From: Candidatus Electrothrix sp. GW3-4
GTDB lineage: Bacteria > Desulfobacterota > Desulfobulbia > Desulfobulbales > Desulfobulbaceae
Length of the DNA stretch: 32,000 nucleotides
Assembly (NCBI RefSeq): GCF_037902255.1
Contig: NZ_CP147990.1
Coordinates: 1,590,001 to 1,622,000 of the forward strand
Direction of reading: 5' to 3'
How positions within the stretch are numbered: position 1 is the first letter of the stretch; every line of letters begins with the position of its first letter. Below are positions 6,449-31,460 of this stretch, one piece after another. A program made the position numbers and the translations under genes. The notes below the pieces were generated by a model, which was not told the DNA's origin, ran no database searches, and saw nothing but the letters and a program-made list of their open reading frames with translations.

Positions 6449-6492
6449 ACAGTGGTTACGGCCCGAGTCGTGCAAAAAGGAAGAAACAGCGC

Positions 6493-7941: not shown

Positions 7942-7954
7942 TCTTCCCTCATCC

Positions 7955-15511: not shown

Positions 15512-15624
15512 GCAAGGTATAACATAGCCTTTCAACTTTCGTGGCTTCGTTTGATGTCCGCTTGCAAGTATCTGCGGAGATGGAACAGGCCGTAACCAAG
15601 AGCTGCGGCCCTTCTCCCCAGGGA

Positions 15625-16692
15625 TCAATGTTGCGGATAATGCCTGTACCGATAAACAATATTCGTGAATCTGGAGCAACTGTCGTTTGTGCAGGTGCCG
15701 TTATGCCGCGCTTCGAACTTTTTTTGATCAATCGCGATAAAGAGATCGTGACCGGACAGGGCAACGCCCTCAATGCCTTGCAACACTGTTCCAGCGGGCG
15801 ACAAGGGCTGGGTTAAAAAAATTTGGCTGACCGTACCGTGGGACGACATACCGGTCGGCGGCGTCATCCTGATTTCCTGGAGCAGGAAGGCTCCGTTATT
15901 ATCTTTTCGGTCATATCCCTCATCATATAAGACAAAGAGGGTATCATAGGTCGAGGAGTAAAATAATGCTGAAATGGCTGCTGTTTTCAGTACTGATTCT
16001 GTAATGATTCCGGCACGCATGACCCTGGTCCCGTTTTGTTCCAGGTCGTACGCATATATTTTCCCTTTCCCCTTCTCTGCCTGGGTGGCAGCCAAGAATA
16101 AGCCATTGAAGCCGCCTGTCGAATCAGGAAAGGGGTGTTTTCCATCCGGCACAAAGGTCATCCCCTCCATCCCTCCTTCCCCTCTCTTGCCATTATGGGG
16201 AAGATCAGTGAGCTGCCAATTTTGACCGATATTGGCATTCGACCCTGCTGATAGCCGATTGCTTTTTTTCGGATCAGGGTTGGGATAATACTCGTAGATT
16301 GTTGGCATAATCGAGCTTTCATCTCCTTCAACATTGAGAAAGAGTGCGCCACCAACGGAAGTCATGCCTTCAAAATCGGTATCCACCAGCGAATCGACCT
16401 TATTCATATCCTGGTAATCAAGGGCCTTGCCCGTGTTGTTGTTTGCCCCCAGGCTGACCCGGGCGAGCTTGCCGTTGTCGCTTACTATATACAGATAGCC
16501 GCCTGCCCAGGATAAACCGCTCGGTTCGAAGTCAGTCCCGGAATCCTTTGTAAACAGCAGGGTGTTGCTTGGGCTTACGGGCCACGCGCACGGCCCGGAT
16601 GTGCAGGAAGGGGCCGTGGCGTTTGCAGTCGGAGTCATCAGCAATCCCCCCCAAGCGGCAGCCAACAATACTATAGCACGATTTTTTTTCAT
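15625..16692 (-). CDS. Secreted beta-propeller protein, phytase-like / SdiA-regulated-like
   Basis: I prefer the ATG at 16692 because it has a GGAG 8 nt upstream and gives a signal peptide (MKKNRAIVLLAAAWGGLLMTPTANA). Repeated blade motifs are present: FEPSGLSW..GYLYIVSDNG, FEGMTSVGGALF, MEGMTFVPDG and IEGVALSGHDLFIAID. Confidence 0.5.
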   Translation of the reverse strand: MKKNRAIVLLAAAWGGLLMTPTANATAPSCTSGPCAWPVSPSNTLLFTKDSGTDFEPSGLSWAGGYLYIVSDNGKLARVSLGANNNTGKALDYQDMNKVDSLVDTDFEGMTSVGGALFLNVEGDESSIMPTIYEYYPNPDPKKSNRLSAGSNANIGQNWQLTDLPHNGKRGEGGMEGMTFVPDGKHPFPDSTGGFNGLFLAATQAEKGKGKIYAYDLEQNGTRVMRAGIITESVLKTAAISALFYSSTYDTLFVLYDEGYDRKDNNGAFLLQEIRMTPPTGMSSHGTVSQIFLTQPLSPAGTVLQGIEGVALSGHDLFIAIDQKKFEARHNGTCTNDSCSRFTNIVYRYRHYPQH

Positions 16693-16741
16693 AACGATCT
16701 CCTTTTTTTCTTTGGCTGTCACTACGATCAATTTAAAATTA

Positions 16742-18460
16742 TTAAGAAAAATGAGTGTCCATCGTGTTGATACGACTTTGGATGGGCGGCACGGCTTGGT
16801 CATCGATCCACACATCAAGGACCGTTGGAACCTGTGCGCTCAGGATATCCTCAACCAACGAGGCGGTCAAGGTAACTTTGCCGTCGAGATGTATACCGCG
16901 CGCTCCCAGTCCTTCAGCAATTTTGACATAATCGACCCTTTGAAAACAAGTGCTCATGACATCTGGGATGGTTTCTTTCACGAGATGTCGACCGTGATAT
17001 ATCATGCCGAGCATGGCATTGTTCAAGACCACCCAGATCACCGGAATTTTGTAGTTGACTGCTGTGGCCACCTCGAAACCGTTCATCAGAAAGGAACCGT
17101 CCCCAACCATGGCCACTACCGGACGATCGGGTGACGCTAAACGAGCTCCCACAGGCGCGGCAACGGCATACCCCATGGAGCCGTAGCCCAGGGAAACAAA
17201 AAATGAACCGGGGTGAACAATGCTCATATAACGAATGGCCCAAGCCATAGAGGTGCCGATGTCTGCAAAGAATATACAATTTTCCGGGAAAAATTTTTGA
17301 ATATCAAACATTAATTGTGCAGGATGATAAAGGTCGTTTCCTGATGTGAACGTTTCCTTTGGAGTATGGCGTTGCCGTAGACCTTGCAGATGTTGGTTAT
17401 GGTGGGCGCTGTGATTTTTTTTCAGCGCAACCCCTTCTACCGCCTGGGCAAGCATTTTAAGATTTATTTGTGGATCACCTACCATGTGGTGTGATGCGCG
17501 ATAATTCTTTCCTATCTTTTCGATATCAACATCCAGATGAATCAGATGTTCGCTGGGCTGGAGATGCTCATCCCAGCCGTTAGTCATCATCTCACTGAAA
17601 CTGGTCCCCACTGCCAGAAGGACATCCACATCATTGTCAATGAGATATTCCTTGGCCAGGGGAGAGCCTGCAAATCCCAGAACCCCTAAGGAGAGTTCAT
17701 GGGATTCCGGGAACACTCCTTTGGCCTTTGGAGAAGTGGCCACCGGAATCTGGAGTCGTTCGGCCAGTTGCAGAAGCTCCGGCATGGCTTGAGAAAGATA
17801 GACTCCCCAACCGGCGATGATTGCCGGACGTCGGGCCTCAGCAAGGAGTTCAGCCACCTTATCCACCCGTTCCACGTCGAAAAGGCGTGTTTCTTCGGTG
17901 CCTGTTGATAGGAGAGATTCCCGTAGTTCGACAGGTCGTTTCATAATGTCGGCGGGCAGGTTGAGATGCACAGGGCCGCCTGGATTGCTCAAGGCGAGAC
18001 GAATGGCCTTGAGTAGCATATATTGAGCACGGCCCTCAGAGATCAGTATTCTGCTATATTTTGTAAAACTGCTGAATATCCGCATGAGATCAATCTGTTC
18101 TGATCCAGATTCCTGAAAGGCCCCTTTACCGAAGAGCGATGTGGCCACTTGACCGGTCAGGGCCAGTATCGGAATCTGGTCGACATATGATGATATCAGG
18201 CCGGTGATGAGATTGGAAGCTCCAGGACCGGCTGTGGCATAACATACGCCGAGCCTGCCCGAGACACGGGCATAGCCGTCAGCCATGAAGGCGGCACCTT
18301 CCTCGTGTTTGCTGACAATGGGAATAATATCATACGGGTTGTTGTCCAGGGCGGTATTGAGATCTTCAATGGCAGATCCAGGTACGCCGAACAAGTATTT
18401 TACTCCGGTTCGACCTAATATTTCGACAATCATCTCAGCGGTATTCATGCATTCTTCCAC
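16742..18460 (-). CDS. Thiamine-diphosphate-dependent enzyme of the acetolactate-synthase large-subunit family
   Basis: The N-terminal Pyr domain reads GVPGSAIEDL...HEEGAAFMADGYARVSGRLGVCYATAGPGASNL. The ThDP-binding motif is GDGSF-x24-NN (MVGDGSFLMNGFEVATAVNYKIPVIWVVLNNAMLG). The track start is the GTG at 18460. An ATG at 18448 is an alternative start. Confidence 0.85.
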   Translation of the reverse strand: MEECMNTAEMIVEILGRTGVKYLFGVPGSAIEDLNTALDNNPYDIIPIVSKHEEGAAFMADGYARVSGRLGVCYATAGPGASNLITGLISSYVDQIPILALTGQVATSLFGKGAFQESGSEQIDLMRIFSSFTKYSRILISEGRAQYMLLKAIRLALSNPGGPVHLNLPADIMKRPVELRESLLSTGTEETRLFDVERVDKVAELLAEARRPAIIAGWGVYLSQAMPELLQLAERLQIPVATSPKAKGVFPESHELSLGVLGFAGSPLAKEYLIDNDVDVLLAVGTSFSEMMTNGWDEHLQPSEHLIHLDVDIEKIGKNYRASHHMVGDPQINLKMLAQAVEGVALKKNHSAHHNQHLQGLRQRHTPKETFTSGNDLYHPAQLMFDIQKFFPENCIFFADIGTSMAWAIRYMSIVHPGSFFVSLGYGSMGYAVAAPVGARLASPDRPVVAMVGDGSFLMNGFEVATAVNYKIPVIWVVLNNAMLGMIYHGRHLVKETIPDVMSTCFQRVDYVKIAEGLGARGIHLDGKVTLTASLVEDILSAQVPTVLDVWIDDQAVPPIQSRINTMDTHFS

Positions 18461-18691
18461 CGGTGTTGTGCCGATGGCCTCTTTACAGATTGGCGGTCTT
18501 GATGAACCCGTTCAGGGGATAAACGGAAAGATGCTCTGAAAGATGGTTAATCTTATGTTATCCCTGATGGGAATACAAGGAACATGGTAAAGATGAGAAA
18601 CTGGGTAGAGTTATAAGAAAATGCGAACGAAAAATTCTTGGAGTGTTGTAATGCAGAAGACAAAAAAGGTACTGCATGGGGCAATCCCTGT

Positions 18692-20110
18692 TTAGGGAGA
18701 TTGTTTGTGCAGCAAGTCGGGAATTGTTTCCATTTCTTTTTCAACAGTATCTAGGAGATCACTTAACTTTTTTTCCTCATAGGAGGTTCTGCAAAACCCA
18801 ATAGTTATAGTGAGGGAATTGGCAAATCGCGTTGCGCCGATGAGGAGTAGAGGTGCATATACAACCGGTGCGCTCATAAAGGCGTCCGTTATTTCAAGTT
18901 CACCGAACTCCATATCCTTCCGGTCAAGAAGCCCCATGTTGGTAAACCAAGGGGGGGGGGCTTTCGAACCCAAGAAGCGGTTCAGCCTTAAAACGAAATT
19001 GTGAAATCCTCGTGCCAACGAAATTGGCAACCACTGTATCCTGAATATTGATTTTCTGGTGAGATGAAGACCAAAATAATTTTGTTTGTGGATCGTCATT
19101 TGTCTATGAACGAAAGATATTGTTTCCTCCAAGGTATCACCGAGATGCGTACCTATGTTCAGTAGGAACAGGTTAGCAAGATTGGTCACAGCCTCACCTC
19201 GGCGACCAGGAAGGTAACGGCGCAAATTTATAGTCACACCTAGCCGAAGCGGTGTCTTAAAATCCGGCTGAAGTATTTTATAAAGTCCGCGAAAGAGACA
19301 GGCCGTGAGAATATCGTTAACAGTGAAACCATGATGCGCGGCATATTGCTTGACCGGCCTGAACTGGTCACCAGAAATTCGGCGGATGAGAAAAGTTCGG
19401 TCAATAGTAGATTGCGGCAGAATAAAAGGAAATACCCAGTTTTTCCTGGGATAAAGATCGTCGAACCAGTTCCAAAGACTCAAGCGCAGGATTTTTAGTT
19501 TATCAGACAGATGAAGAAATTCTGTAACCTGTTCATACGAGCGTCTTCCTGTAAGATTTATTTGCGGTTTGAATGCAGCATCTCTCCCGATATTTCGGTA
19601 AATGAAGGCAAGAAGTCGGATGTATTCTTTTAATCCTCCGGCATCGGAAACTATATGATTCGCTTTTATACAAAGGATGTCTGACTCGGCTCGGAAAATA
19701 TGGATTTGGACCATTGGGTCGTTATAAGGATCATAGGGAGCAACCATATAGTTGATGAGAGCTTTTTCTGGACGATCAGTCTTCGTCACTCGACAAAATT
19801 CGAGCTTGTTAATGTCCTCTCGCCGTCGCCAAAACTGACGCCATCTGTTTTCAACAAGCTGGCAGCCCAGTACCGGTTCAGCATCCATGGACAGGCGGAC
19901 TGCTTTTGATAAGCGAACCTGATCAAGTTGACTGGCAAAAGTTATAACGCAATGAAGCTGTAGATCACAAATATGGCGGTTGACAGGAAGCGCCCTATCT
20001 CCTTTAACGGTTTTATACCGCAGAGGAACTGTCCGTAAATAATCTCGATCAACTGAGCGATTGACTTTTTTAGCCCTCTTCATGACTCCCCATGTACGGA
20101 TGATGTTCAC
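18692..20110 (-). CDS. Stand-alone condensation-domain-like acyltransferase (CAT/NRPS-C/PapA5/WS-DGAT superfamily)
   Basis: The protein is 472 aa. The motif NHIVSDAGG (verified at nt 19660-19634) fits the HHxxxDG acyltransfer signature with the first His replaced by Asn. No adenylation or carrier domain is fused to it. Confidence 0.55.
   Translation of the reverse strand: MNIIRTWGVMKRAKKVNRSVDRDYLRTVPLRYKTVKGDRALPVNRHICDLQLHCVITFASQLDQVRLSKAVRLSMDAEPVLGCQLVENRWRQFWRRREDINKLEFCRVTKTDRPEKALINYMVAPYDPYNDPMVQIHIFRAESDILCIKANHIVSDAGGLKEYIRLLAFIYRNIGRDAAFKPQINLTGRRSYEQVTEFLHLSDKLKILRLSLWNWFDDLYPRKNWVFPFILPQSTIDRTFLIRRISGDQFRPVKQYAAHHGFTVNDILTACLFRGLYKILQPDFKTPLRLGVTINLRRYLPGRRGEAVTNLANLFLLNIGTHLGDTLEETISFVHRQMTIHKQNYFGLHLTRKSIFRIQWLPISLARGFHNFVLRLNRFLGSKAPPPWFTNMGLLDRKDMEFGELEITDAFMSAPVVYAPLLLIGATRFANSLTITIGFCRTSYEEKKLSDLLDTVEKEMETIPDLLHKQSP
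18941..18950. repeat. G10 (C10 on the coding strand) homopolymer inside the acyltransferase CDS
   Basis: Counted directly: ccaa + 10 G + cttt. On the minus strand it reads GCC CCC CCC CCT TGG, which encodes A-P-P-P-W (..SKAPPPWFTN..). The tract is in frame in this assembly. Confidence 0.95.
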
Positions 20111-20198
20111 AGCACGTCAAACTCACCGAAAAGCCTGTTCATGCAGATGAATGGTGTGTTTTGCCAGCAGGGGTTAGGTTGCACAAGACCTGTACCGG

Positions 20199-20921
20199 TC
20201 ATAAGATATTGGCACCCCCGTCAACCAGCCAGACACTGCCTGTCACATAGGTTGCTTCCAGCTGGGCCCATACCACTTGAGCAACTTCTTCGGCTCGACC
20301 ATAGCGTTGCAGGGGAATGATCTGCTCCAGCATGGTCCTTCGTCTCGCAAGTTCCTCTTTACTGCGCCCTGTTTTTGCTGCCAAGGGCGTATCAATGGCA
20401 CCAGGGGCAACGGCATTAACGCGAATCTTTTTCGGGGCCAGTTCCAAGGCAAGGCTTCGGGTGGTGGCTTCCAGGGCCCCCTTGGTTGCAGCGTAAAGTG
20501 AACCGTTGAGCAGTCCCCTGTTAACGGCTATGGAAGAAATATTGGTGATGCGTCCCTGTCTTTTTTCCAAAGCCGGTAAGACTTCTCGGATTAATTCCAA
20601 GGGACCTCGAATATTGGTGTTGAAAAAAAATGAATAGTCAGAAGGGGATAATCTACTTAACGGAATAAACTTCGCTATGGCAGCATTGTTTATCAAGACA
20701 TCTAAACCCTCATCCTGAAACGGAAGGGACAAACGCTTAATATCATCAAGTTTAGCCATATCGGCAAGTATATATTCAACCCCTATCTCCGCAGCAGCTC
20801 TCTTTACCCTGTCCCTGTGACGACCGGATATAACAACCGAATATCCCTTTTTCTTTAACAAAGTAGCTGTTGCGTAACCGATGCCGGAGTTGCCACCTGT
20901 TATCAAAGCTGTTTTTTTCAT
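20199..20921 (-). CDS. Short-chain dehydrogenase/reductase (classical SDR)
   Basis: The protein has TGGNSGIGYA (the TGxxxGxG motif), NNAA, and the Ser...YAATK catalytic motif. It is 240 aa long. Confidence 0.9.
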   Translation of the reverse strand: MKKTALITGGNSGIGYATATLLKKKGYSVVISGRHRDRVKRAAAEIGVEYILADMAKLDDIKRLSLPFQDEGLDVLINNAAIAKFIPLSRLSPSDYSFFFNTNIRGPLELIREVLPALEKRQGRITNISSIAVNRGLLNGSLYAATKGALEATTRSLALELAPKKIRVNAVAPGAIDTPLAAKTGRSKEELARRRTMLEQIIPLQRYGRAEEVAQVVWAQLEATYVTGSVWLVDGGANIL

Positions 20922-20996
20922 TTTATACCCGTTTTTTCTCAGGACTATAAGTCTATGGAAACTTCATGATGTAGCTGAGTGCTTAATGAGAAGAGT

Positions 20997-22037
20997 TTAC
21001 GCAGGTTTTCTCCCTGTAATAATAGACCAGTCACCAAAACCGGTCTTTTGGGCTTTTATATCTATAAACCCTACGGTTCTCAGCAGCTCGTTGAGTTCTT
21101 TTGCGGAAAACTGTTGTCCTTTTGCCCACAACAACATGAATATATTATAGGCAGCCACTGGATAGGGACCTGTCTTGTCATCATCAAAGAGCATTTCATG
21201 GATAATAATCCGACCTCCAGGTTTAAGGCTTTCAAAGCTTTTTTCTGTAAGAAATGTACATTGTTTCGGCGTCCAATCATGGAAAATATCACTGTAAAAA
21301 TGTAGATCCGCCTCAGGAAAATTATCTTGCCACATATCGCCAGCATAAGTTCTAATTTTGTCTTGTAGGCGAAATTTGTTGATAAATTCTTTAGCGACAT
21401 CACAAACTACAGCTCTGTCATAAACAATCGCTTGTAATCTGGGCCAGGAAAGAACTGCCCCGATGGAATGCGCTCCTGAGCCCCCCCCAACATCTAACAT
21501 GCATATGTTATCAGTAAGGTCTACAATAGAAGGCCAAGCAGAAGCAGGCCCCATGCTTTTACAGTGCATTGATTTGGTGAACCCCTTAGCGAATTCTGCT
21601 TTCTTTTCATTGGTCTCAAAAAGATCTTCACCTCCATACACTTGGGCTCTATTGGTCATAAGGGCCTTTTTAAAACTTTCAAACGAATAGACCTCACTCA
21701 ACTGCCACCCCCTGTCCAGAATGCTGCCAAAATACGTCGGGCTTTCCTCAAGGAGATAATCTTTTGATATATCGGTCAGAGTATAACGTTTTTCTTTGGT
21801 GAGACCTATGAAGTTTTGACTTACCAGCATAGACAGCATGGCTTGGGCGGCACGAGGAGCAATATTGTATTCCTCGCAAATTTCTACAATGCTTAAGGGT
21901 TTCTTTGAAAGCAATTTAAATAGGTTCATATTATGGGCAACAAACAAGGCTTGTGCCCCTGCAAGGCCATATAAAACATTCAGCAAGGGGCTATCGTCTA
22001 CGCAGGGTTTTTGAATATTTGAAATTTCAAATTTCAA
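20997..22037 (-). CDS. SAM-dependent O-methyltransferase (family-2 type with an N-terminal dimerisation/winged-helix domain)
   Basis: The SAM motif is LDVGGGSGAHS, and the catalytic-base context is SDIFHDW. The overall length (346 aa) and N-terminal helical domain are typical of small-molecule OMTs. Confidence 0.8.
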   Translation of the reverse strand: MKFEISNIQKPCVDDSPLLNVLYGLAGAQALFVAHNMNLFKLLSKKPLSIVEICEEYNIAPRAAQAMLSMLVSQNFIGLTKEKRYTLTDISKDYLLEESPTYFGSILDRGWQLSEVYSFESFKKALMTNRAQVYGGEDLFETNEKKAEFAKGFTKSMHCKSMGPASAWPSIVDLTDNICMLDVGGGSGAHSIGAVLSWPRLQAIVYDRAVVCDVAKEFINKFRLQDKIRTYAGDMWQDNFPEADLHFYSDIFHDWTPKQCTFLTEKSFESLKPGGRIIIHEMLFDDDKTGPYPVAAYNIFMLLWAKGQQFSAKELNELLRTVGFIDIKAQKTGFGDWSIITGRKPA

Positions 22038-22065
22038 GGAATTTCACCTGTAATTATAATAAGAT

Positions 22066-22932
22066 TTATAAAATATTTTTTTGCTGGCTACTGCTTGCCT
22101 GCGGTACCGGCCGAGGCATTTTCCCCTGGTAGTCAATATCCCCGCACCGAAGAGGGAAAAAAGTTTCAGGTGGCGAATCGTTTGCTTCTGTATAACAGGC
22201 AAGAACTCCAGCATGTACGACAGGACTCAATAAACGATAGATTTCTATAGATGTTAGTCCTTGATCCGATAGAAATGCGCACCGATATCCGCCGATATTC
22301 ATGCGTTCATTAAATTTTTCAATCAATACTTCCTCAATCTCATATGCTAAAGCAAGATGTTCTCCAACTTCGAATCCGAGATTCTTTGTGACCCGTTCCA
22401 TAGCAGGAACCCTCTCGTCTCCAATAGCTAATGGTCTAATATAGCCTATAATTTTTGGAGAGGAAGAAGGGGTTCTCTGTTTTTCAGCAATGATTTCTTC
22501 AACCGATATGCCTTTCTTTTTTTTTGTTAAGGCAGTTGTAATAAATTTCGTTGCCTCCATTGTCGTTCTCGGGCCATACATAATGGAATCCGAAGCCAGT
22601 ATTCCGGCTCCAACAGCGGCAAGCGGCGATGTCTGCATGGTACCTGCTAAACTGCCAGCTTGGTTACACCAGATGCGGGGATCTGGCCAGCTCAAGCAGA
22701 TAAAGTAAGCTTCGAGCCAGTCGGTCAATTTTCGTTTGGGCAGGCGACCGGTCACATTAAGAAATAAGACCTGGAAAAAGGAAGCCGTTCCAACGAGGTC
22801 ATCCAGCATGGAATAACCATGGTTATGGATAGCTTCGTTGATGACCCAGCCGCCTTTTTTTGTGTGGATAAAGCCACGACGGCTGTCCCAGAAAGAAGTG
22901 TCATTTTTTACGGGCTTGTTCTGCAATGACAT
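22066..22932 (-). CDS. Citrate synthase / citryl-CoA lyase-fold protein, divergent paralogue B
   Basis: The sequence HGYSMLDDLVGTASFFQVLFLNVTGRLPKRKLTDWLEA matches the family N-terminal pattern GYD..L...SF.E..YLLL.G.LP. Later segments align by eye to the PLHG, PGYGH..DPR and NVD regions, but the catalytic residues are substituted (see finding). Confidence 0.55.
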   Translation of the reverse strand: MSLQNKPVKNDTSFWDSRRGFIHTKKGGWVINEAIHNHGYSMLDDLVGTASFFQVLFLNVTGRLPKRKLTDWLEAYFICLSWPDPRIWCNQAGSLAGTMQTSPLAAVGAGILASDSIMYGPRTTMEATKFITTALTKKKKGISVEEIIAEKQRTPSSSPKIIGYIRPLAIGDERVPAMERVTKNLGFEVGEHLALAYEIEEVLIEKFNERMNIGGYRCAFLSDQGLTSIEIYRLLSPVVHAGVLACYTEANDSPPETFFPLRCGDIDYQGKMPRPVPQASSSQQKNIL

Positions 22933-23728
22933 AATGTTCCTCGTCTAAAAACGGCATAGCGGTTTTAGGTTTATTTGCCAATTCAAGGCCATGTGCCAAA
23001 ATTCCTGGTGCCCGGAGAATTTGAAAGAGCCCTGCCCCGGACCGGGGATGAAAGCCGAGATCACAAAATACTGCGGCAGCAAGACCGGTATCCAGCCAGC
23101 CCATCCCTTGCGGACGAAGTGCTGCAGCAAACTTTTGGCCCCATTTGATAACCTTACCCGCTGCGGAAAATCCAGCCAAAAGGTCGGCAAGCTGTTGCGG
23201 TAGAGGATCAATACCACTGAACCGGCTTCCAAAACCCGGCGCTACATGCCAATCACCCTCATCAGGTCGAGAAAAGGATAACAATTCATCCGCATGTTCC
23301 GTTGTATTTTTTTTAGAATTTTTCCATAAAAATCGCATGGCTGCCGAGACTTCTTCTCCGCCAAGGTATGCTCCACTTAGCACGGCCAGGCCGGTGGGGA
23401 GGATATGGGCTGGGTTAGCCTTACCTACTGCTGCATTCATGGATGCCCTAGTTGCCGGATGTCGGGGGCCGGGATTAACCAGTGCGATCATCAACCGTTC
23501 AAGGAGTTGGGCCTGATTTGGGTCCGGCAGCTCTCCCTGAAACAAGAGAAACAATACATCAACAAAGGAACGTTTTTTTGCCAGTTCCAAAATATCATAG
23601 CCATGGCATCGGCATTTTTCGGCCAGATAGGGATTTTCCGGTAAGGGTTCTTCCTGCCAGATCCTGGTAACTGTGCGGTCGGTGAATTGCTCGTCTCTTT
23701 TGCGCACCTGGAATTTTTGTTTGGTCAT
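22901..23728 (-). CDS. Citrate synthase / citryl-CoA lyase-fold protein, divergent paralogue A
   Basis: Family-like segments are CHGYDILELAKKRSFVDVLFLLFQGELPDPNQAQLLE, APGFGSRFSGIDPLPQQL, GWLDTGLAAAVFCDLGF and FQILRAPGILAHGLE. Its TGA at 22903-22901 lies 32 nt inside paralogue B, whose ATG is at 22932. Confidence 0.6.
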   Translation of the reverse strand: MTKQKFQVRKRDEQFTDRTVTRIWQEEPLPENPYLAEKCRCHGYDILELAKKRSFVDVLFLLFQGELPDPNQAQLLERLMIALVNPGPRHPATRASMNAAVGKANPAHILPTGLAVLSGAYLGGEEVSAAMRFLWKNSKKNTTEHADELLSFSRPDEGDWHVAPGFGSRFSGIDPLPQQLADLLAGFSAAGKVIKWGQKFAAALRPQGMGWLDTGLAAAVFCDLGFHPRSGAGLFQILRAPGILAHGLELANKPKTAMPFLDEEHYVIAEQARKK

Positions 23729-23792
23729 TTTTCTCGCTACCTATCTAGATTATGATGTTTTTGTCAATGACAGGTCGTTGTTAGCTGAGTCG

Positions 23793-25988
23793 TCAAAAAT
23801 GATATATCAACTCTGCATAAAGAGACCTGCTCTCCATCGGTATGTCATAGGGAATATCCGATGGAGTCGGTTCGCGAATATTTTCATTGAGGAGATTACG
23901 AACCCCAACTGCTAAGTTGATGTGTTTGGTGATTTTTTTTCTTTGTATCATCATGTTAACGAGACTATAATTATTGATTTCCTCCCGGTCGTCATTTTCC
24001 GCTCTTTGGCGGTCGCCAATCCAATAATATTGGGCATTGAGATACCAATCCGGCATAAAATTCCAGTTTCCGTTGAGATAGAACTGAATCCCTGGTGCAT
24101 CGGCGACAAGGGCATCTGTATCTTTATCCTTGGACCGTTGATAGGCTAAATTAGTATTTATCTTGAAGGAGGGAGTTAATTCCCATTCCAGCTCGATCTC
24201 AACCCCCTGTCCCTTTTGATTGATAGCGTTTTGTGCAGTTTCGGTGGTAGCCGGAGCTGGGTCGGCAACGTAATCAATGAGCCCGTCAATATCATAGGCA
24301 AAGAGGCTTACAATTGTTCTCAGAGAATGGATGGGGCTGTAGTCAAAGGCAAGCTCATAGGTGTCAATGGTTTCAGGATCAAGATCAGGATTACCCAAAA
24401 AGATTGGATTGTTTTCCAAGTAACTTTCCGCGAAAGAAGGGGGGCGAAATGCATGGCCGTACATAAGCTTGCTGGTCAGATCGTAGCGTGTTTCCCAGAC
24501 CAGAGCGATGCGCGGATTAACCGTATTTCCGAAATCACTGTAATGATCGTAACGTACTCCGGCAGTAAGCTCCCAGTCTTTAGCAAAAGACCATTCATCC
24601 TGGAGAGAGGCATAGAGAACCGTACGGTTTTGATCGGGCATAAATATGTCCTTATCATTTACTGTTGGTCCTATTAATTTTCCATCCGTACTCACGGTGA
24701 GCTCATCGTTGTCTAGAACGCCCGGACCGAAATTTTTGTACTCTTCAGTTGTTTCATCCTGTATTTTTCCTCCAATGCCTATACGCCAGTTCTGCCGGTT
24801 CCACCCATCGTATTTCGTGATAGCATCAAATGTCAGCTGTTGGTCAATAAGAATCGGTTCACCAAGCATACCATCGGTAAAAGTCGTGACTCCTGCTGTT
24901 AGTGAGGTAAAGAGGTTCCCGTCAGCACCGATGGCAACGGTTGATCCGGGTGGTAGAAGTTGGTATAGGACATCATCCTTACGGTAGAGATAGCTCAATT
25001 GCAAGGTGAGACCAAGATTATTGGTCAGCTCATCATCACTCCAAGTTATATCACCTAAAATTTGATCGTTGTTCACCCTGGTTTCTGGCCCTAAGGCCCC
25101 TGCACTGCCGGTCCCCCCTTCATAATCATTCAGGAACCAACCCCAGAGACGAATTGTCCAGTTTTTGCGATTGAAGTTCGCCATGAGATTGTAATTCTCA
25201 AAATCAGTATGCAAGGGACCTGGTGCCAAGGAGGCATTGGTGCCAAAGATCTGATCCAGCTTTGTCTGGAGGTCGGCGTCTATGATCCGTTTATCGTCAC
25301 TGCCACCTCGCCAGTACTCTATTCCGATGCCAACGTCCCAGCCTTTGTACCGCCCTCCGTGTTGTCCCCAAACATCCAGGCCGTCAAAGGAAGAGATGCG
25401 GACACCGGTATACATTCCTTCGACTTCAAAGCGGTCCTTAGTGATAATATTAATAGTGCCAGCAAAGGCGTCAGCACCGTAGAGGGCAGATCCTGGTCCT
25501 CGTACGACTTCAATACGAGATATCATGGAGACAGGAAGGCGAAAGCCTGATGGACGGCTACCGTTATATGGTTTGGTAAAGGGAATGCCGTTCATCAAGA
25601 CTAAGACTTGGGGATTCAGGCTGGTATGGATGCCGCGTATGGAATAGATAGGGTCAAGATGGACATAGGACGGTGTCACATGGAGCCCCGGCACAGTTTC
25701 CAGTACCTCATCCAGGGTGGTGGCACCAAGTTTTTCGATATCCTCCGCTGTGATGACCGAGGCCACAGAAGGGGCGAGGTAGACAGGCTTCAGGCTACCC
25801 GTTGCTGTGAGCAAAAGACGATCATTCCGGTAGACATCCTCTTCCTGGGGGCCCTGTCCGAACATATCTTCAAAGGCCTGAACTTCTTCCTCGCTTATCA
25901 GAGAATTTTCGTTCTCTGATTTGGCGTTTCCTCGCGTATAATTTAATAAGAGGAGGAAAATAACGATAGCGACAGTTATTTTGTCCAT
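23793..25988 (-). CDS. TonB-dependent outer-membrane receptor
   Basis: A signal peptide is followed by a TonB-box-like DRLLLTATG and a plug domain (VITAEDIEKLGATTLDEVLETVPGLHV...IEVVRGPGSALYGADAFAGTINIITK). A long beta-barrel ends in YAELIYHF, with a terminal aromatic residue. Confidence 0.9.
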   Translation of the reverse strand: MDKITVAIVIFLLLLNYTRGNAKSENENSLISEEEVQAFEDMFGQGPQEEDVYRNDRLLLTATGSLKPVYLAPSVASVITAEDIEKLGATTLDEVLETVPGLHVTPSYVHLDPIYSIRGIHTSLNPQVLVLMNGIPFTKPYNGSRPSGFRLPVSMISRIEVVRGPGSALYGADAFAGTINIITKDRFEVEGMYTGVRISSFDGLDVWGQHGGRYKGWDVGIGIEYWRGGSDDKRIIDADLQTKLDQIFGTNASLAPGPLHTDFENYNLMANFNRKNWTIRLWGWFLNDYEGGTGSAGALGPETRVNNDQILGDITWSDDELTNNLGLTLQLSYLYRKDDVLYQLLPPGSTVAIGADGNLFTSLTAGVTTFTDGMLGEPILIDQQLTFDAITKYDGWNRQNWRIGIGGKIQDETTEEYKNFGPGVLDNDELTVSTDGKLIGPTVNDKDIFMPDQNRTVLYASLQDEWSFAKDWELTAGVRYDHYSDFGNTVNPRIALVWETRYDLTSKLMYGHAFRPPSFAESYLENNPIFLGNPDLDPETIDTYELAFDYSPIHSLRTIVSLFAYDIDGLIDYVADPAPATTETAQNAINQKGQGVEIELEWELTPSFKINTNLAYQRSKDKDTDALVADAPGIQFYLNGNWNFMPDWYLNAQYYWIGDRQRAENDDREEINNYSLVNMMIQRKKITKHINLAVGVRNLLNENIREPTPSDIPYDIPMESRSLYAELIYHF

Positions 25989-26014
25989 ATTTTTTCTCCC
26001 TTATCCTGTAAATT

Positions 26015-26965
26015 TCAATCAATGATTTGTGTCGCCATATCAAGGGAAGCTTGGCGGAGTTTCAGTCCTATACGTTGAGCGGTCGTCTGGTTAATGATAA
26101 TCTGCGTCCCCAAAGGGGCCATCACCCCGATAAGATCCGGGCGTTGATGACGGTTGATGATATTTTTTGCCATTGAGGCTGCCTGTGAACCGATATCGCT
26201 GATATCTGGGTTAATGGAAAGTACAAGACCGTGTTCAGCGATGTTTTTTGACTGACCGATACAGGGTAATTTTCCCTTGATACAGCGTGTATTAAGCCAA
26301 TCCATATTGTCGAGAGTGTAGAGAACTGGGTCGTTCAGAACAAAAAAGGCATCAATTTTTCGCCTGATCTTTTTGAAATGAAGTTTAAAATCCGTTGGCC
26401 GGTCGATTTCCTTACCGTACAGTTCAATGTTGAAAATCTCAGCGGCTTCTTTGGCCCGTTGCAGTGTCTCACGGCTGTATGAGCTGTATATCACTCCTAT
26501 TCGTTTGATACCAGGAGACAGTATTGTAATATTCGCAAACTTTGTCCCAGGAGCTATTTCGGCGGCAATGCCAGCCATATTTTTCTGATCAAGGAGGTTA
26601 TATCTCTTCCAATTCAAGACCATAGCAAAGAGCACCGGGATTTCCTGATACTCTCTGGTCCAGAGTTTGGCCGTAAAGGCTGCTTTGGCGCCTAAGGCAA
26701 ATATTAATCGAGGATGGATAGAGAGGAGTTTCTCTTTCAGCAGAGGATCCTTTTTTATATCACCTTGCAAATTAAAGAGAGACACAGGGGAGTCAATTTC
26801 AGCACGAAATGCCTCCACCGGTTCGTTATAAACGGAATCATTATCGGAGAGCAGGACGGCTACCGGAGGGGGATTGTCAGCAGCATGAAGTAATACCGGC
26901 AGTAACCCGTAGATAACCGACAGGGCAAGTGTAATTATTTTAGCGCGAATAGTTATGCCATGCAT
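26015..26965 (-). CDS. Periplasmic binding protein of the ABC_sub_bind type
   Basis: I prefer the ATG at 26965, which gives the signal peptide MHGITIRAKIITLALSVIYGLLPVLLHA. The pattern PVAVLLSD...IFALGAKAAFTAK...IPVLFAMV...NMAGIAAEI...IKRIGVIYSS fits this family. Confidence 0.6.
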   Translation of the reverse strand: MHGITIRAKIITLALSVIYGLLPVLLHAADNPPPVAVLLSDNDSVYNEPVEAFRAEIDSPVSLFNLQGDIKKDPLLKEKLLSIHPRLIFALGAKAAFTAKLWTREYQEIPVLFAMVLNWKRYNLLDQKNMAGIAAEIAPGTKFANITILSPGIKRIGVIYSSYSRETLQRAKEAAEIFNIELYGKEIDRPTDFKLHFKKIRRKIDAFFVLNDPVLYTLDNMDWLNTRCIKGKLPCIGQSKNIAEHGLVLSINPDISDIGSQAASMAKNIINRHQRPDLIGVMAPLGTQIIINQTTAQRIGLKLRQASLDMATQIID

Positions 26966-27770
26966 CGACTTGCAACATCTCCATGAGATCAGCAGAATCA
27001 TCGGAGTGTGTCGCCTCTAAAAATTTTTTTTTCAACTTCATAACTTTTTCACCTGGAACACCCACATTTCCTACGCAAAGTATAGGCAATGGAATGGGCT
27101 GTGACTTAGCCAGCGGATGAACAATTTGTAAGATATGGGGATTGATTTCTCCGATTTTTTGTAAATTATTTTCGGAAACCAAGGCTACATCCACCTGCCG
27201 CATAGCCAAGGCAAACAGGGCATCTGAATCCTTTGGTGTTGTAATAATGTTTAATGCATTTGCTGTGATCTTAAATTGATTAAAAATAATACGGTCCAGC
27301 ACATCAGGGGCGTTGTTGCCCATGGTCGTCATGGCGAGGGTTTTATTGCGCAGACCCTGTAAAGTGAGTTGCGAGTCTTTGGCTGTCAGCAGAACCTTGT
27401 GATATGTTGCCTGTCCCTTACGTACAGGTTGCAGAAGTGGCTGTAGCCCATTTTTTTTATTTTGCCGAAAATACCACTCTGGAAGAAAAACAAATGCAGG
27501 AGAGGTTTTCATCATTTCACGATGAAAATCATGGTATTTGGCAAAGGGTTGAAAAGTGAGGGTAAAAGCGTTTTTTTGCAGAAAACGTTCCATCTCCTGC
27601 TTCAGGCGAACGAGATTGCTTTGTGAGGAGTCGGGATTGAAGTAGTAAAATTTTTTATTGTCATTTTGGGTAGCGTGACCGATACGAGGTATGCATGTTG
27701 CGCCACATAATATAATGAGCAATACTCTGATGATGATAATAATGTCTGTCTTGAAAGATATATTTTTCAC
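26940..27770 (-). CDS. PhnD-like (phosphonate-binding-fold) periplasmic binding protein
   Basis: The start codon is GTG. An N-terminal hydrophobic signal is present. The pattern FQPFAKYHDFHREMMKTSPAFVFLP...YHKVLLTAKDSQLTLQGLRNKTLAM...ALAMRQVDVALVS resembles PhnD-type binding proteins. The gene overlaps the next gene by 26 nt. Confidence 0.5.
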   Translation of the reverse strand: MKNISFKTDIIIIIRVLLIILCGATCIPRIGHATQNDNKKFYYFNPDSSQSNLVRLKQEMERFLQKNAFTLTFQPFAKYHDFHREMMKTSPAFVFLPEWYFRQNKKNGLQPLLQPVRKGQATYHKVLLTAKDSQLTLQGLRNKTLAMTTMGNNAPDVLDRIIFNQFKITANALNIITTPKDSDALFALAMRQVDVALVSENNLQKIGEINPHILQIVHPLAKSQPIPLPILCVGNVGVPGEKVMKLKKKFLEATHSDDSADLMEMLQVDAWHNYSR

Positions 27771-27989
27771 TCGGTCTTATGACGTGCGTTGGTAATCCTT
27801 TCAATACAAAGAGCGCAGAAAGAGGGAGAGCCAAGCCAGAGGATGCAAAGGATAATTAAAGAGAGGCTCGCCTTTCTTTTTTATAGGTCTACAATAGTTA
27901 TATTGAAAAAGCAAGAAACCGATGGCAAAAAAATAGATTTTTTTTCGCTAAAATGGGGTGATGCGTGGTTTTTCAAGAAGGGGCGGGGT

Positions 27990-28020
27990 GTCTTTTTCCT
28001 TCTGTACGAGGGAAAAAGAC
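27990..28020. promoter_or_regulatory. Perfect 10-bp inverted repeat in the long leader of the receptor/biosynthetic locus
   Basis: GTCTTTTTCC (27990-27999) is separated by an 11-nt spacer (TTCTGTACGAG) from GGAAAAAGAC (28011-28020). The repeat lies 220-250 nt upstream of the first gene's start at 27770. Confidence 0.4.
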
Positions 28021-28178
28021 AAAAGAGACGGCAAAGTCTTGCCGATTTGTGGACCTGTTTTTTTTCCAATTTTAACGCGTAGGGAAAAATTGATGGAAAA
28101 CGGGTGGAAATGCAGAGCAAAGGCTGTAAGAAAAGAAACTCATTGACTATGAGAGATTTCTCTTCTGCTGGGCGATAG

Positions 28179-28193
28179 TTTTTTTTGGGGGGG
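28179..28193. repeat. T8G7 compound homopolymer (C7A8 on the minus strand)
   Basis: Counted directly: gatag + 8 T + 7 G + caag. It is intergenic, lying 76 nt past the DUF2301-like stop codon and upstream of the receptor locus. Confidence 0.95.
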
Positions 28194-28268
28194 CAAGAAG
28201 ACAGCTATAAAATGACTGAAGCTGGGTTTGAATTGCTCAAAGCATTATGTTGCACCCCCATGATGTTG

Positions 28269-28835
28269 TTAGAGACCGTAAAGGCTTTTGTCGCCGATAT
28301 CAAAATGAAGGGGCATGCGCCACTTGGCAACACAAAGCCAGGTAAGAAGCAGGGCTGCCGGGAGCAGAAAGTAGGTCTCAGCAGAGGAGGACCCCAGCAG
28401 GCGGTTTAGGATCGAACCGCAGAGGAATAGGGGAACCAGAGGCAGCCCGATAATTCGAAAGCAGAAGGACTCTTTCAGGGCAAACATCCCCGCACCGACG
28501 TAAAACAAGGCCAAGCTCAGGTTGGCCAAGGTATCTGCGAGAGGAGTTGTCCCTTTAAGGGTATAGGCAAAGGCCAGAATGATAAAGCCGATCCAGCTCA
28601 CAAAAGGGAAAAACCATCTGAATTTTGGATCATAAAGATGCACGTCAGCGCTTGCCAGGGCAATGCCAGCGGCAAAGACAGGTAAATAAAAAGCGCCCAA
28701 TATCTGTACGCTGATGAGTTGCTCAATGCTGTAGATCAGGGCAGATACGGATGCAATAGTCAGGCCTGTTCGGTAGAGGGCAACAGTCATGTTATCCAGC
28801 GAATTCATTTCTGGAGTATGTTCGGGGGTAGCCAT
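28269..28835 (-). CDS. Small polytopic membrane protein (DUF2301-like by recollection)
   Basis: The protein is 188 aa with about 5-6 hydrophobic spans. It contains the motifs FALKESFCF and HFDIGDKS. No Shine-Dalgarno sequence is evident upstream (aaaaaaacaaaattATG). Confidence 0.5.
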   Translation of the reverse strand: MATPEHTPEMNSLDNMTVALYRTGLTIASVSALIYSIEQLISVQILGAFYLPVFAAGIALASADVHLYDPKFRWFFPFVSWIGFIILAFAYTLKGTTPLADTLANLSLALFYVGAGMFALKESFCFRIIGLPLVPLFLCGSILNRLLGSSSAETYFLLPAALLLTWLCVAKWRMPLHFDIGDKSLYGL

Positions 28836-29066
28836 AATTTTGTTTTTTTATATGAAAGAACCAACGACTCCTTGGAGTCGTTCGATCAACTTTCATGCTT
28901 TGTTGTCCCTCTCCAGAGGGGAGGGATGGGCGTTATATGAAAATAATTTGTTACTCTGTCTTCTTCAAAGAAGTATTTAACAGCGGGAAGCCTCCAGCCT
29001 ACCTTGCTTTGCTGCCAGCAATGAAATCATTCCAGGGGGAGAAAGTCAACAGATTTTACCGGATCA

Positions 29067-30860
29067 TTACTTCTCTGTAAATCCCCAGAAAGGGTAGTCG
29101 AGCTGATACGAGCCGATCAGGCCCGGCGTGTGTTCCCGGCTGGCCACCAACCAGAGTGCATTTTCGCGCTCCTCTGGCGGGGCATTACTAAAGGGATCCC
29201 ATTGCGGCAGCAGGACCATAGCGTTGTCTGCCGAGTACTCAATATCTCCAGACCCCTTAAAGGCCCCTAACTGGGGCTGTTTGTCATACTGCCCATCATC
29301 ACCGCGTGTCAGTTCGGAAATGACCAAGAAGGAGACATTCAGCTCATCGCGCAGGGCCTCAAGATGGCGGAGCCAGGCGTCTATACCGGTTCTGCGTTCT
29401 GAAAAATCCTTAAACGGCAGTTTATGCAGACTATCGATCACCACCATGGTGTACTCAGACTTACTTTCATGGCGAAGGAAATCAATATGGCTACGCATGA
29501 GCTTCGGATTGAGTTTACGATCGGTGACCACCCGGAGCCAAGGCAGCAGGTTTTGCAACTCCGCCTTGGCTGCTGCGAGTTGTTGTTGTTCCTGTCCCGT
29601 AAGATCATTGCTCTGGAGCTGATCAGCACGCAGCCTACTTAAACGACATAGGGTTCGCTGGTAGATTTTCTGGCGACCGTTTTCAAAATCATAATAGATA
29701 ACCGGGACCTTGCGCCGGGCCATTTCTGTTGCCACCTGGATAAAAAAGCAGGACTTTCCCGCCTTGGGCAGGCCACCCATGATATTGACCCCGTGCAGAC
29801 CACCAAGGGCCTTGTCCATTTTGCCAAAGCCTGAGACCATGGTCTGATAGTTTTCACCTTCTTGGAGATTGAGCTGTTCCTCAAAATGGAGAAATTCCCG
29901 TTCTGGTGAACTAAAGGGAGAAAAGGACTTTGCCTCTTGGATCAGTTTAAAGAATGCCTGCTGAAAGCCCTTGCCCTGTTCTTGAGCCAACTGGATCAAA
30001 TTGAACTGGCGTGGAGCAGTATCTGGCCAGCGGATCATCCTGATTTTGAAACCAATCCGGGTGGCAAGCTCACGGGCAGCGGAAATAGACTCCGGGCTAT
30101 GGTTGACGCAGAGAAAGACGGTATTGAGCCAGGCCAGTTGTTCCGTTGCCAGGTGAGCAAATTCACTGATAGCAGGCAGGGCAATGCCGGGTAGCCCCAT
30201 CTGCCGGACAGCAAGCAGGTTATCTTCGCCTTCTATGATCACCAGGCTGCCGTTCTCACAGCGTTGAATATCCTCCAGATTAAAAATTTGCAATCCGGGC
30301 TGGGCAAAGTCTTCATCGCCATGCCAAAAGCTGTCTTCGGGTTTGTCGGGATGGACACAGCGGGCTGCATAACAGTTGCCGTCTGCCTGAAGATAGGGGT
30401 AGACCAGGTAGCGCCCGTTGTAGCCGATCTTCATTTCCCGGAGGACAGCCCGAGAGACTCCTGATTGGGCAAAGCGCTCAATCAGGTCATCGGTCATCCT
30501 GTCCATGAAGTCTCGTACTTCATGGTTAATATTCTTGACCGGGTAATTGAGCTGACTGGCAGCGTAATCCCGGTCTGGATCAAAACCAGGGGCCAAGCTC
30601 AGGTCAAGATGTGCTTGGCGGGCAAAATAGAGCGGAAAACCACCGGGAGAGCAGCGATTGAGGCAGCGGTAATAGCCATGAAAATAGCTTTCTGGATTCA
30701 GAAAGACGACAAGGGCTTTTCCTCCCTTTTGCCGTTTTTTGTTTGATGACGCACCGGTCCGGGTGCAAAAAGGGCAGTCTGCTGTCAGGACCTTATTATG
30801 CAGCTTTGCTCCTGGGAGTTGGGTCAGATAGAAATCAGTTACCGGGTCAGTACGGTTCAT
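29067..30860 (-). CDS. Primase-helicase-like protein: C4 zinc ribbon, TOPRIM-like domain and RecA/DnaB-C-type ATPase
   Basis: The zinc-ribbon cysteines are C29/C32 (CPFC) and C66/C70 (CLNRC). The TOPRIM glutamate context is LVIIEGEDNLLAV (E210). Walker A is GGLPKAGKS (362-370) and Walker B is YTMVVIDSL (D476). The sequence FLVISELTRG is DnaB/RepA-like. An AAGGA sequence lies 10 nt upstream of the ATG. Confidence 0.7.
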   Translation of the reverse strand: MNRTDPVTDFYLTQLPGAKLHNKVLTADCPFCTRTGASSNKKRQKGGKALVVFLNPESYFHGYYRCLNRCSPGGFPLYFARQAHLDLSLAPGFDPDRDYAASQLNYPVKNINHEVRDFMDRMTDDLIERFAQSGVSRAVLREMKIGYNGRYLVYPYLQADGNCYAARCVHPDKPEDSFWHGDEDFAQPGLQIFNLEDIQRCENGSLVIIEGEDNLLAVRQMGLPGIALPAISEFAHLATEQLAWLNTVFLCVNHSPESISAARELATRIGFKIRMIRWPDTAPRQFNLIQLAQEQGKGFQQAFFKLIQEAKSFSPFSSPEREFLHFEEQLNLQEGENYQTMVSGFGKMDKALGGLHGVNIMGGLPKAGKSCFFIQVATEMARRKVPVIYYDFENGRQKIYQRTLCRLSRLRADQLQSNDLTGQEQQQLAAAKAELQNLLPWLRVVTDRKLNPKLMRSHIDFLRHESKSEYTMVVIDSLHKLPFKDFSERRTGIDAWLRHLEALRDELNVSFLVISELTRGDDGQYDKQPQLGAFKGSGDIEYSADNAMVLLPQWDPFSNAPPEERENALWLVASREHTPGLIGSYQLDYPFWGFTEK

Positions 30861-30875: not shown

Positions 30876-31460
30876 TTACTCATCAATAAAGATTGAAGAT
30901 AATGCTATTTGGAGCTGATCAAACTGGATTGAGAGCAAGGTGTCATCACGGTCTAAAATCTGTGCTTTGCTGTATTGGCCGTCTTGCTCCAGGGTGTAGA
31001 GCATGGCGATTTTATCTATGGGATGCAACAGCCAGTACTCTGTTACACCGTGCTGTTCATAGAGAAAGCGTTTGACTTTGAGATCCTTGGCTGCGGTGGA
31101 GGGCGATAATATTTCAATCACCAGGTCCGGTGCTCCGACACAGCCACGCTCATCAAGCTTTTTCCGGTCACAGATGACAGAGATATCCGGTTGAACAACT
31201 GTGACGATCTCGGTATCTTCAGCTTCCTCCTTGTCAGGTAATCGGACGTCAAAGGGAGCTACATACACCTCACAGTTTTTTTCTTTGAAATAATCGAATA
31301 AGGCATAAAGAATTCTGGACAGCACAGCTTGATGAAGGCGCGAAGGGGCAGGGGACATAGCCCACACTTCTCCGTTGATCAGCTCCCAGCGTTCCTGATT
31401 ATCCCAGGAAATATAATCAGCATAACTGTATCTGGTCTGGGATTGCTGCGGTAATGCCAT
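30876..31460 (-). CDS. Uma2-family (DUF820) putative endonuclease
   Basis: I prefer the ATG at 31460, which has a GAGG 8 nt upstream. The family pattern is present: YSYADY...WELINGEV..MSPAPSRLHQ...VVQPDISVI...APDLVIEILSPSTAAKDLKVKRFLYEQHGVTEYWLLHP. Its stop codon is 15 nt from the next gene's ATG. Confidence 0.8.
   Translation of the reverse strand: MALPQQSQTRYSYADYISWDNQERWELINGEVWAMSPAPSRLHQAVLSRILYALFDYFKEKNCEVYVAPFDVRLPDKEEAEDTEIVTVVQPDISVICDRKKLDERGCVGAPDLVIEILSPSTAAKDLKVKRFLYEQHGVTEYWLLHPIDKIAMLYTLEQDGQYSKAQILDRDDTLLSIQFDQLQIALSSIFIDE

Follow-up and report, generated by a model that had tools for sequence, protein, structure and literature searches.

What do two overlapping genes of the citrate synthase fold do when neither of them keeps the complete catalytic triad of that enzyme? 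The question is raised by a stretch of 32,000 nucleotides from Candidatus Electrothrix sp. GW3-4 (contig NZ_CP147990.1, positions 1,590,001 to 1,622,000 of the forward strand; the whole stretch is hereafter called the window). The two open reading frames (ORFs), referred to as paralogues A and B, are the following:

22901..23728, minus strand: citrate-synthase-like paralogue A, 275 aa, citryl-CoA-lyase fold, adjoining a TonB receptor gene
22066..22932, minus strand: citrate-synthase-like paralogue B, 288 aa, starting 32 nt inside A

Our analysis of their fold, catalytic positions and gene neighborhoods in other genomes indicates that A and B are part of a small-molecule system rather than tricarboxylic acid (TCA) cycle enzymes. 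With regard to their role, we tentatively favor, at a little less than even confidence, a heteromer that serves as a non-canonical ligand-binding or processing module and partners a thiamine diphosphate (ThDP)-dependent carboligase.

The ATG codon of B is placed 32 nt upstream of the stop codon of A, resulting in a 32-nt overlap of both ORFs, and a Shine-Dalgarno-like GAGGA is located inside A, 7 nt upstream of the ATG of B. The start-stop overlap between A and B is conserved in the multi-locus comparison. A previous reading of the window from its letters alone (the sequence-only reading) had reported these ORF coordinates and the overlap, both of which were found exactly, and had suggested translational coupling, with which the overlap and the internal ribosome-binding site are consistent.

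Profile searches were then used to examine the fold. A matches the Pfam family PF00285 of citrate and 2-methylcitrate synthases with 38.9 bits (cut-off 27), the match being confined to the N-terminal part of A, and no match was obtained for B in the Pfam search. The best NCBIfam scores to citryl-CoA lyases (PRK06224 subfamilies) were 91.6 bits for A (cut-off 212) and 52.7 bits for B (cut-off 245), neither of which reaches its threshold; overall, the NCBIfam scores of the two proteins lie between 42 and 92 bits versus cut-offs of 193-261. Among solved proteins, 6HXP, the citryl-CoA lyase of Hydrogenobacter thermophilus, is closest to A as well as to B, with E-values of 1.3e-19 (A) and 1.6e-8 (B) for single sequences and 1.2e-25 (A) and 6.3e-13 (B) for family profiles, and each of them aligns over its full length with this short citrate synthase homology (CSH) module of approximately 260 aa. 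AlphaFold2 models (pLDDT 81.5 for A and 72.0 for B) were compared with known structures by Foldseek, and the top match was again 6HXP (E 5.6e-12 for A and 1.2e-8 for B), followed by the CSH modules of ATP-citrate lyase (ACL); for either model, the probability to citrate synthase, citryl-CoA lyase and ACL structures was 1.00. A and B also match each other by hhalign (probability 96.8, E 2.8e-10, 21% identity). Judged by this profile match, they are ancient paralogues of each other. The citrate synthase fold proposed in the sequence-only reading is upheld by these matches, as is its view that A and B are paralogues rather than two halves of one gene.

Like 6HXP and the CSH module of ACL, A and B have the same short fold of about 260-290 aa. 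They share with citryl-CoA lyases the N-terminal HGY..L pattern and the PG(Y/F)G loop, and B additionally has D-x-R and a C-terminal D-x-x-Y-x-G-x-x-x-R. The family motifs of A are NPGPRHPATRA, GxHLGG (with Tyr121 in the window copy), PGFGSR and APGxLAHGLE, and those of B are SWPDxRIWCNQ, DSxxYG, GYxRPxAxGDER, ExMN and FFPLRCxDIxYxGxxxR. Compared to the citrate synthases of PF00285, which belong to the same fold superfamily, A and B are approximately 100 residues shorter, their triad is incomplete, and they occur in no TCA or methylcitrate context; judged by sequence alignment, A also appears to lack most of the oxaloacetate-binding arginines.

The catalytic positions were mapped by phmmer, hmmsearch and MAFFT alignments, which were mutually consistent, and residues were counted in 82 A orthologues and 77 B orthologues as well as in a wider set of 119 full-length family representatives. 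The canonical triad is His274/His320/Asp375 (pig numbering), and the motifs considered in 6HXP are SAHGG, PGYGH, DPR and NVDG. The residues found are as follows:

First His (6HXP SAHGG): in A, GAYLGG with Tyr121 (82 orthologues: His 70, Tyr 8, other 4); in B, Met (77 orthologues: M/S/A/T)
Second His (6HXP PGYGH): in A, PGFGS with Ser (orthologues S/T/C/N); in B, no His (Ile or Ala; GYI-RP versus PGYGHR), Ala in most orthologues
Arg of DPR (6HXP): in A, Leu (orthologues M/L/I/V); in B, kept as GDER and invariant
Asp (6HXP NVDG): in A, Thr214 (orthologues T/P); in B, Gly (NIGG; orthologues N/G/L/A, Asn in most)

According to these alignments, the complete His/His/Asp set is missing from A as it is from B. 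Besides His, the first column of A accepts Tyr, Phe, Val or Pro in orthologues, and nearly any residue in the wider family. D213 of A is one column off the catalytic Asp and, in a 26-sequence alignment, is confined to the Electrothrix clade; across the 82 orthologues, this column holds T (23), S (19), A (18) and N (5). The catalytic Asp that was mutated in the D1026A and D541A trapping structures of solved ACL and citryl-CoA lyase enzymes has no equivalent in A or B. Sequence alignment alone places Leu in A at the oxaloacetate-binding Arg329 position (M/L/I/V family-wide) and variable residues at the Arg401 position; in B, it places the invariant R174 as the Arg329 equivalent, a residue other than Arg at the Arg401 position, and R274 as a possible equivalent of Arg421'.

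These results modify the claim of the sequence-only reading that the triad is ablated in A. The set is indeed incomplete, and the replacement of the second His by Ser agrees with our alignments; the other two assignments for A were wrong, since the first His is replaced not by Leu but by Tyr121 (a column with His in most orthologues), and the Asp said to be kept in WLDTG is the lineage-specific neighbor D213, the catalytic column itself holding Thr214. For B, the reported loss of all three residues was borne out (Met, no His and Gly at the respective positions). Profile alignment, which that reading had proposed as a check, does not place His/His/Asp at the catalytic positions of either protein.

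A further difference from citryl-CoA lyases, besides the absence of the catalytic Asp and the PGYGH His, is that (N/W)P(G/D)PR stands in place of the DHG motif. Both paralogues share this P-x-P-R, the invariant Arg of which is R89 in A and R86 in B. The shared motif suggests that A and B split from each other after their departure from the canonical lyases.

More than 1000 close homologues each were found for A and for B, and the source annotations of homologues read 'citrate synthase' or 'citrate/2-methylcitrate synthase'. An exhaustive profile search yielded 889 representative clusters, 332 of them at E<=1e-10 and 150 at E<=1e-30, the latter almost without exception devoid of the triad. Virtually all of the 119 full-length representatives have N-P-G-P in place of D-H-G, and the three catalytic columns are variable among them. 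At the level of at least 97% conservation, approximately 50 positions are kept in A and 33 in B, across several phyla or classes. The invariant residues of B orthologues include R166, D172, E173 and R174 (the 'GDER' motif) and N212. In a deep set of 15 B sequences chosen for divergence, R86, R166, D172, R174, N212, D223 and F258 are invariant and R274 is kept in 14. With such conservation, a sign of strong purifying selection, A and B are best described as members of a large and strongly constrained family, not as decaying genes. Four cysteines of B (C79, C89, C246 and C263) are nearly invariant among its close orthologues, and C246 occupies the place of His in a conserved 'AH' motif that is retained in A and citryl-CoA lyases. 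A four-Cys metal or iron-sulfur site was considered and rejected as a general feature of B: its distant members have lost C79 and C89, whereas most of them retain C246 and C263.

To place the pair in its genomic context, 177 loci were collected by a genome scan and neighboring genes were clustered for 81 non-redundant loci. The hosts include Desulfobulbales (among them the cable bacteria), Desulfuromonadales, Gallionellaceae, Chromatiales, Ca. Tenderia, Thiogranum and Cellvibrio. A is adjacent to B in 76 of the 81 loci, and the most constant neighbor of the pair is a TonB-dependent receptor (74 loci), followed by a ThDP enzyme of an acyloin-synthase-like clade (58 loci). Response regulator/PAS signaling proteins are present in 52 loci, an ABC_sub_bind protein in 47, a sensor kinase in 35, a short-chain dehydrogenase/reductase (SDR) in 20, a PhnD-like protein in 17, and an O-methyltransferase in four. 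The sensor kinases near the pair have periplasmic sCache_3_2 or sCache_4 domains, and some of their partners are GGDEF-EAL proteins; in the kinases of two loci (L010 and L021), sCache_3_2, which we take to be of the CitA/DcuS carboxylate-sensor type, scores above the Pfam cut-off. Among the conserved neighbors of the 81 loci, there is no inner-membrane transporter family, no citryl-CoA synthetase (succinyl-CoA-synthetase-like) or CoA ligase, and no gene of the TCA or methylcitrate cycle. The sequence-only reading had placed the pair in an enzyme cluster and had taken an ordinary TCA context as evidence against its interpretation. Instead of such a context, the loci contain the receptor, the ThDP enzyme, binding proteins and sensor kinases, and a more fitting description of the cluster is a unit composed of TonB receptor, A, B, ThDP carboligase and periplasmic sensors.

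Even two very distant pairs (L092 and L093) are placed directly after a TonB receptor gene. In L093, the receptor stop codon overlaps the start of A, and a Cache/HAMP hybrid kinase and an O-methyltransferase of the same type are also present. The B-type partner in this locus (6837-8150) has 437 aa, with a C-terminal extension of approximately 150 aa.

Whether A and B always occur as a pair, as the sequence-only reading had asked, can be answered for most loci in the affirmative. Exceptions include four loci in gammaproteobacterial metagenome-assembled genomes (MAGs), L027, L029, L031 and L033 (~8001-8837 in each), in which A, approximately 60% identical to the window copy, occurs without B. 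These lone A genes are located directly after fadE-fadA-fadB and genes for an acyl-CoA synthetase and a 4HBT thioesterase. Their position in beta-oxidation operons suggests acyl-CoA as a ligand, and hints that A binds acyl-CoA and can act without B.

Natural gene fusions also link the components. Two proteins (P0252 and P0329) are A-B fusions; a third (P0369) is a fusion of the ThDP enzyme with A, with a B gene directly after it; and L091 has an A-B fusion gene with the ThDP gene 4 nt upstream of it, as well as neighboring genes for a TonB receptor, an SDR and a histidine kinase. A further metagenomic protein initially regarded as an A-B fusion (P0136, 504 aa) proved to be a B-B tandem in which the first unit is partial and the second is full. 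On the Rosetta-stone argument, these fusions speak for joint action of the ThDP enzyme, A and B as a single unit, and the adjacency in 76 of 81 loci together with the natural A-B fusions strongly, though indirectly, suggests an A-B heteromer. In this respect, the putative heteromeric pair would differ from the homo-oligomeric citryl-CoA lyases. A and B also differ from citryl-CoA lyase in their partners, which are a ThDP enzyme and a TonB receptor, with no citryl-CoA synthetase encoded nearby. As the C-terminal fusion partner of a larger catalytic module, A resembles the CSH module of ACL.

Two subtypes of ThDP enzyme occur beside the pair, and the solved proteins closest to either of them are BbmA (Brevibacillus) and CsmA, a Thermosporothrix protein similar to acetohydroxyacid synthase (AHAS) being among the BbmA relatives. 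These enzymes resemble the acyloin-forming ThDP carboligases BbmA, CsmA, ScyA, NzsH and the Thermosporothrix enzyme. Enzymes of the BbmA/CsmA kind form alpha-hydroxy-beta-keto acids or acyloins by decarboxylation of one 2-oxoacid and its addition to another carbonyl, and the products of acyloin-forming ThDP enzymes are then processed by pathway-specific partners (PMC9822442). Unlike the loci described here, the BbmA-type loci that were looked up carry no citrate-synthase-like genes; the native, Brevibacillus-type locus of BbmA has a KAS III gene instead. Searches of the literature on citryl-CoA lyase in Desulfobulbaceae, on citrate synthase pseudoenzymes, on clusters combining citrate-synthase-like, thiamine and TonB genes, and on BbmA/CsmA yielded a description neither of the A/B family nor of a citrate-synthase-fold protein that partners a ThDP carboligase. 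To our knowledge, no citrate-synthase-fold partner of an acyloin-type ThDP carboligase has been reported. In two other loci (L088 and L089, from Elusimicrobia and a proteobacterial MAG), BbmA-like ThDP enzymes are encoded directly beside large hybrid histidine kinases and several response regulators, and the link between acyloin-type ThDP enzymes and signaling genes may reach beyond the loci that carry A and B.

Based on these features, the mechanism that we favor may be outlined as follows. A and B, as two diverged subunits of the citryl-CoA lyase fold, would assemble into an obligate heteromer, incapable of classical citrate-synthase or citryl-CoA-lyase acid-base chemistry and acting in the cytoplasm as the dedicated partner of an acyloin-synthase-type ThDP carboligase. 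The ligand scaffold would be retained in the form of the PGFG adenine-loop motif of A and the invariant Arg-rich pocket of B (R86, R166, R174 and R274, together with D172, N212 and D223). Most probably, such a scaffold would have a CoA thioester and/or a 2-oxo or tertiary 2-hydroxy carboxylate as its ligand, which it would exchange with the ThDP enzyme in either direction; alternatively, it might handle the labile tertiary alpha-hydroxy-beta-keto-acid product of that enzyme, which would be similar to the tertiary center of citrate. The final product would be a small carboxylate or a molecule of the alpha-hydroxyketone type, for which the SDR, O-methyltransferase and acyltransferase would provide the tailoring in Electrothrix. 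Its import and sensing in the periplasm would depend on the co-transcribed TonB receptor, the orphan binding proteins and, in other organisms, Cache kinases and cyclic di-GMP (c-di-GMP) enzymes. Because the loci combine a receptor, orphan binding proteins and periplasmic sensors with no conserved inner-membrane importer, a compound made inside and sensed outside (a signal or metal ligand) is favored over uptake and catabolism, and we infer synthesis rather than breakdown as the direction of the pathway. By logic only, this arrangement is similar to autoinducer and siderophore loci (CqsA/CqsS and TonB-receptor-linked clusters), in which cytoplasmic synthase genes stand beside an outer-membrane receptor and periplasmic-sensing kinases; CqsA/CqsS is an alpha-hydroxyketone signaling system whose synthase is paired with a receptor. 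There is no homology to the known synthases of such loci. A bolder proposal, which we consider conceivable though doubtful, is that the ThDP carboligase and A/B are the synthase of a new class of diffusible molecules (an alpha-hydroxyketone, diketone or tertiary alpha-hydroxy-acid signal or metallophore). Here, the citrate synthase fold would have taken on a new use, the presentation of an acyl-CoA or 2-oxoacid to the ThDP-bound carbanion, with the receptor, orphan binding proteins, and Cache kinases or c-di-GMP enzymes as a dedicated perception pathway.

Several observations weigh against a ThDP-partnering module. The ThDP gene is missing in 23 of the 81 loci, partly owing to short contigs, and was not seen beside the distant pairs L092 and L093; given its absence from some loci, the receptor-A-B unit may function without the ThDP enzyme. 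In the window, no sensor kinase lies beside the A/B pair. Moreover, only R89, E26 and E249 are widely conserved polar residues of A family-wide, which would also fit a purely structural subunit, and in B, invariant acidic or aromatic residues (D115, Y119 and E209) lie beside the lost catalytic positions, so that a rewired active site is possible. The former observation bears on a rather unlikely alternative, namely that A and B are a pure pseudoenzyme, either a non-catalytic oligomerization core or an effector-binding regulatory subunit of the ThDP enzyme, as might be likened to the CSH core of ACL or the small regulatory subunits of AHAS. The variable catalytic columns of the 119 representatives also fit this explanation, and the fusion of the ThDP enzyme with A parallels the ACL architecture, in which a catalytic module is joined to a CSH module. 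However, an invariant polar pocket in B (R86, R166, D172, E173, R174, N212, D223 and R274) that persists over deep divergence exceeds the needs of a scaffold, and the pair is linked more constantly to the TonB receptor than to the ThDP enzyme. The residues of B adjacent to its lost catalytic positions are instead in keeping with a rewired but active enzyme. Such an enzyme, an unlikely solution in our estimation, would be a true C-C lyase or synthase (alkylcitrate- or citramalate-like, acting on a CoA ester and a 2-oxoacid), with His121 of most A orthologues and D115, Y119, E209 and C246/C263 of B as substitute residues, and its product, imported through the adjacent receptor, would be a polycarboxylate metallophore or signal resembling citrate. 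The retention of the first His by 70 of the 82 A orthologues, the siderophore-locus style in which the genes closely follow the TonB receptor gene (overlapping it in L093), and the sCache_3_2 domains in two loci are consistent with this proposal. Nevertheless, the Asp of the trapping mutants has no counterpart in either subunit, the His121 column is permissive, and the conserved neighbors include neither a CoA ligase nor a citryl-CoA synthetase.

The receptor can also be read in the opposite direction, as importing an organic compound for cytoplasmic degradation by A/B and the ThDP enzyme. In favor of this reading, the receptor gene is co-transcribed with genes for cytoplasmic enzymes, acyloin cleavage is also within the repertoire of ThDP enzymes, and lone A homologues occur in beta-oxidation operons. 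We regard it as improbable, however, because no inner-membrane transporter is conserved over the 81 loci, the O-methyltransferase and acyltransferase tailoring is biosynthetic in character, and many of the hosts, such as Gallionellaceae and Ca. Tenderia, live as obligate or preferential lithoautotrophs. An ordinary role in central metabolism, as citrate synthase or citryl-CoA lyase, is suggested by the database names of the homologues and by an aconitase gene nearby on the other strand in Electrothrix. This reading is extremely improbable and, for practical purposes, ruled out by the lost catalytic residues, NCBIfam scores far under every cut-off, and a neighborhood with neither citryl-CoA synthetase nor conserved TCA genes.

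The 'citrate synthase' label on A and B is common in MAGs of cable bacteria, Gallionellaceae, Desulfuromonadales and others; it is wrong on present data and can introduce errors when the TCA and reverse TCA cycles are reconstructed from genomes. The A/B family would exemplify the reuse of a citrate synthase fold that has shed its catalytic machinery, in the form of a heteromer coupled with or fused to a ThDP enzyme. In addition, an undiscovered metabolite (a signal or metal ligand) is suggested by the fixed link of the family to an outer-membrane receptor and periplasmic sensors in bacteria that live by cycling iron and electrons. If the bolder proposal made above is true, a diffusible-molecule system would be common to cable bacteria, iron oxidizers, iron reducers and electroautotrophs.

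In the window, A and B belong to a minus-strand operon with the order PhnD-like protein, ABC_sub_bind protein, TonB receptor, A, B, O-methyltransferase, SDR, acyltransferase candidate similar to wax ester synthase/diacylglycerol acyltransferase (WS/DGAT), ThDP enzyme and exported phytase-like protein. The genes other than A and B are listed below:

26940..27770, minus strand: PhnD-like periplasmic binding protein (PF12974), N-terminus signal-peptide-like
26015..27001, minus strand: ABC_sub_bind periplasmic binding protein (PF04392), N-terminus signal-peptide-like
23793..25988, minus strand: TonB-dependent receptor with signal peptide, directly upstream of A with a 64-nt gap
20997..22037, minus strand: O-methyltransferase (Dimerisation and Methyltransf_2), 28 nt downstream of B
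20199..20921, minus strand: SDR
18692..20110, minus strand: Condensation/WS-DGAT-like acyltransferase candidate, weak matches
16742..18460, minus strand: ThDP-dependent carboligase of the AHAS-like superfamily, with BbmA (1.2e-132) and CsmA as closest solved relatives
15625..16692, minus strand: exported phytase-like protein (PF13449), membership in the unit uncertain

The proteins of the window, which comes from a cable bacterium, show 83-85% identity to Electrothrix and Desulfobulbus proteins. The two binding-protein genes, as called, share 62 nt (26940-27001), and no gene for an ABC permease or ATPase was found near them at the locus. The acyltransferase candidate is restricted to a few Desulfobulbales loci, those of Electrothrix and of two Desulfurivibrionaceae/Deltaproteobacteria MAGs. 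The phytase-like ORF as listed (15625-16818, minus strand) runs into the ThDP gene; its real start is probably an internal Met that is followed by a clear signal peptide (MKKNRAIVLLAAAWGGLLMTPTANA), which would make the protein an exported one. An Rfam scan of the window detected no riboswitch or other RNA family that could name the ligand of the receptor, and a promoter/terminator scan gave counts no higher than those of shuffled controls.

The aconitase gene (12863-15511, plus strand) lies next to the cluster on the opposite strand, as it does at other Electrothrix loci (L001, L002 and L007), and in a gammaproteobacterial MAG (L067), an aconitase with 52% identity is located approximately 7 kb from the pair. 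It is the sole TCA-related neighbor and is not conserved in the other lineages sampled. The G+C content is approximately 0.55-0.59 in the first 12 kb of the window (1-12000) versus 0.42-0.47 across the receptor/A/B/tailoring cluster (12000-29000), and genes for a DnaB-like helicase (29067-30860) and a Uma2-family endonuclease (30876-31547) flank the cluster, which may have been acquired horizontally. Elsewhere in the window, a 417-aa ORF at 1383-2636 (minus strand) is a fusion of the NuoB-NuoC type that contains both the Oxidored_q6 (20-kDa) and Complex1_30kDa (30-kDa) domains of NADH dehydrogenase.

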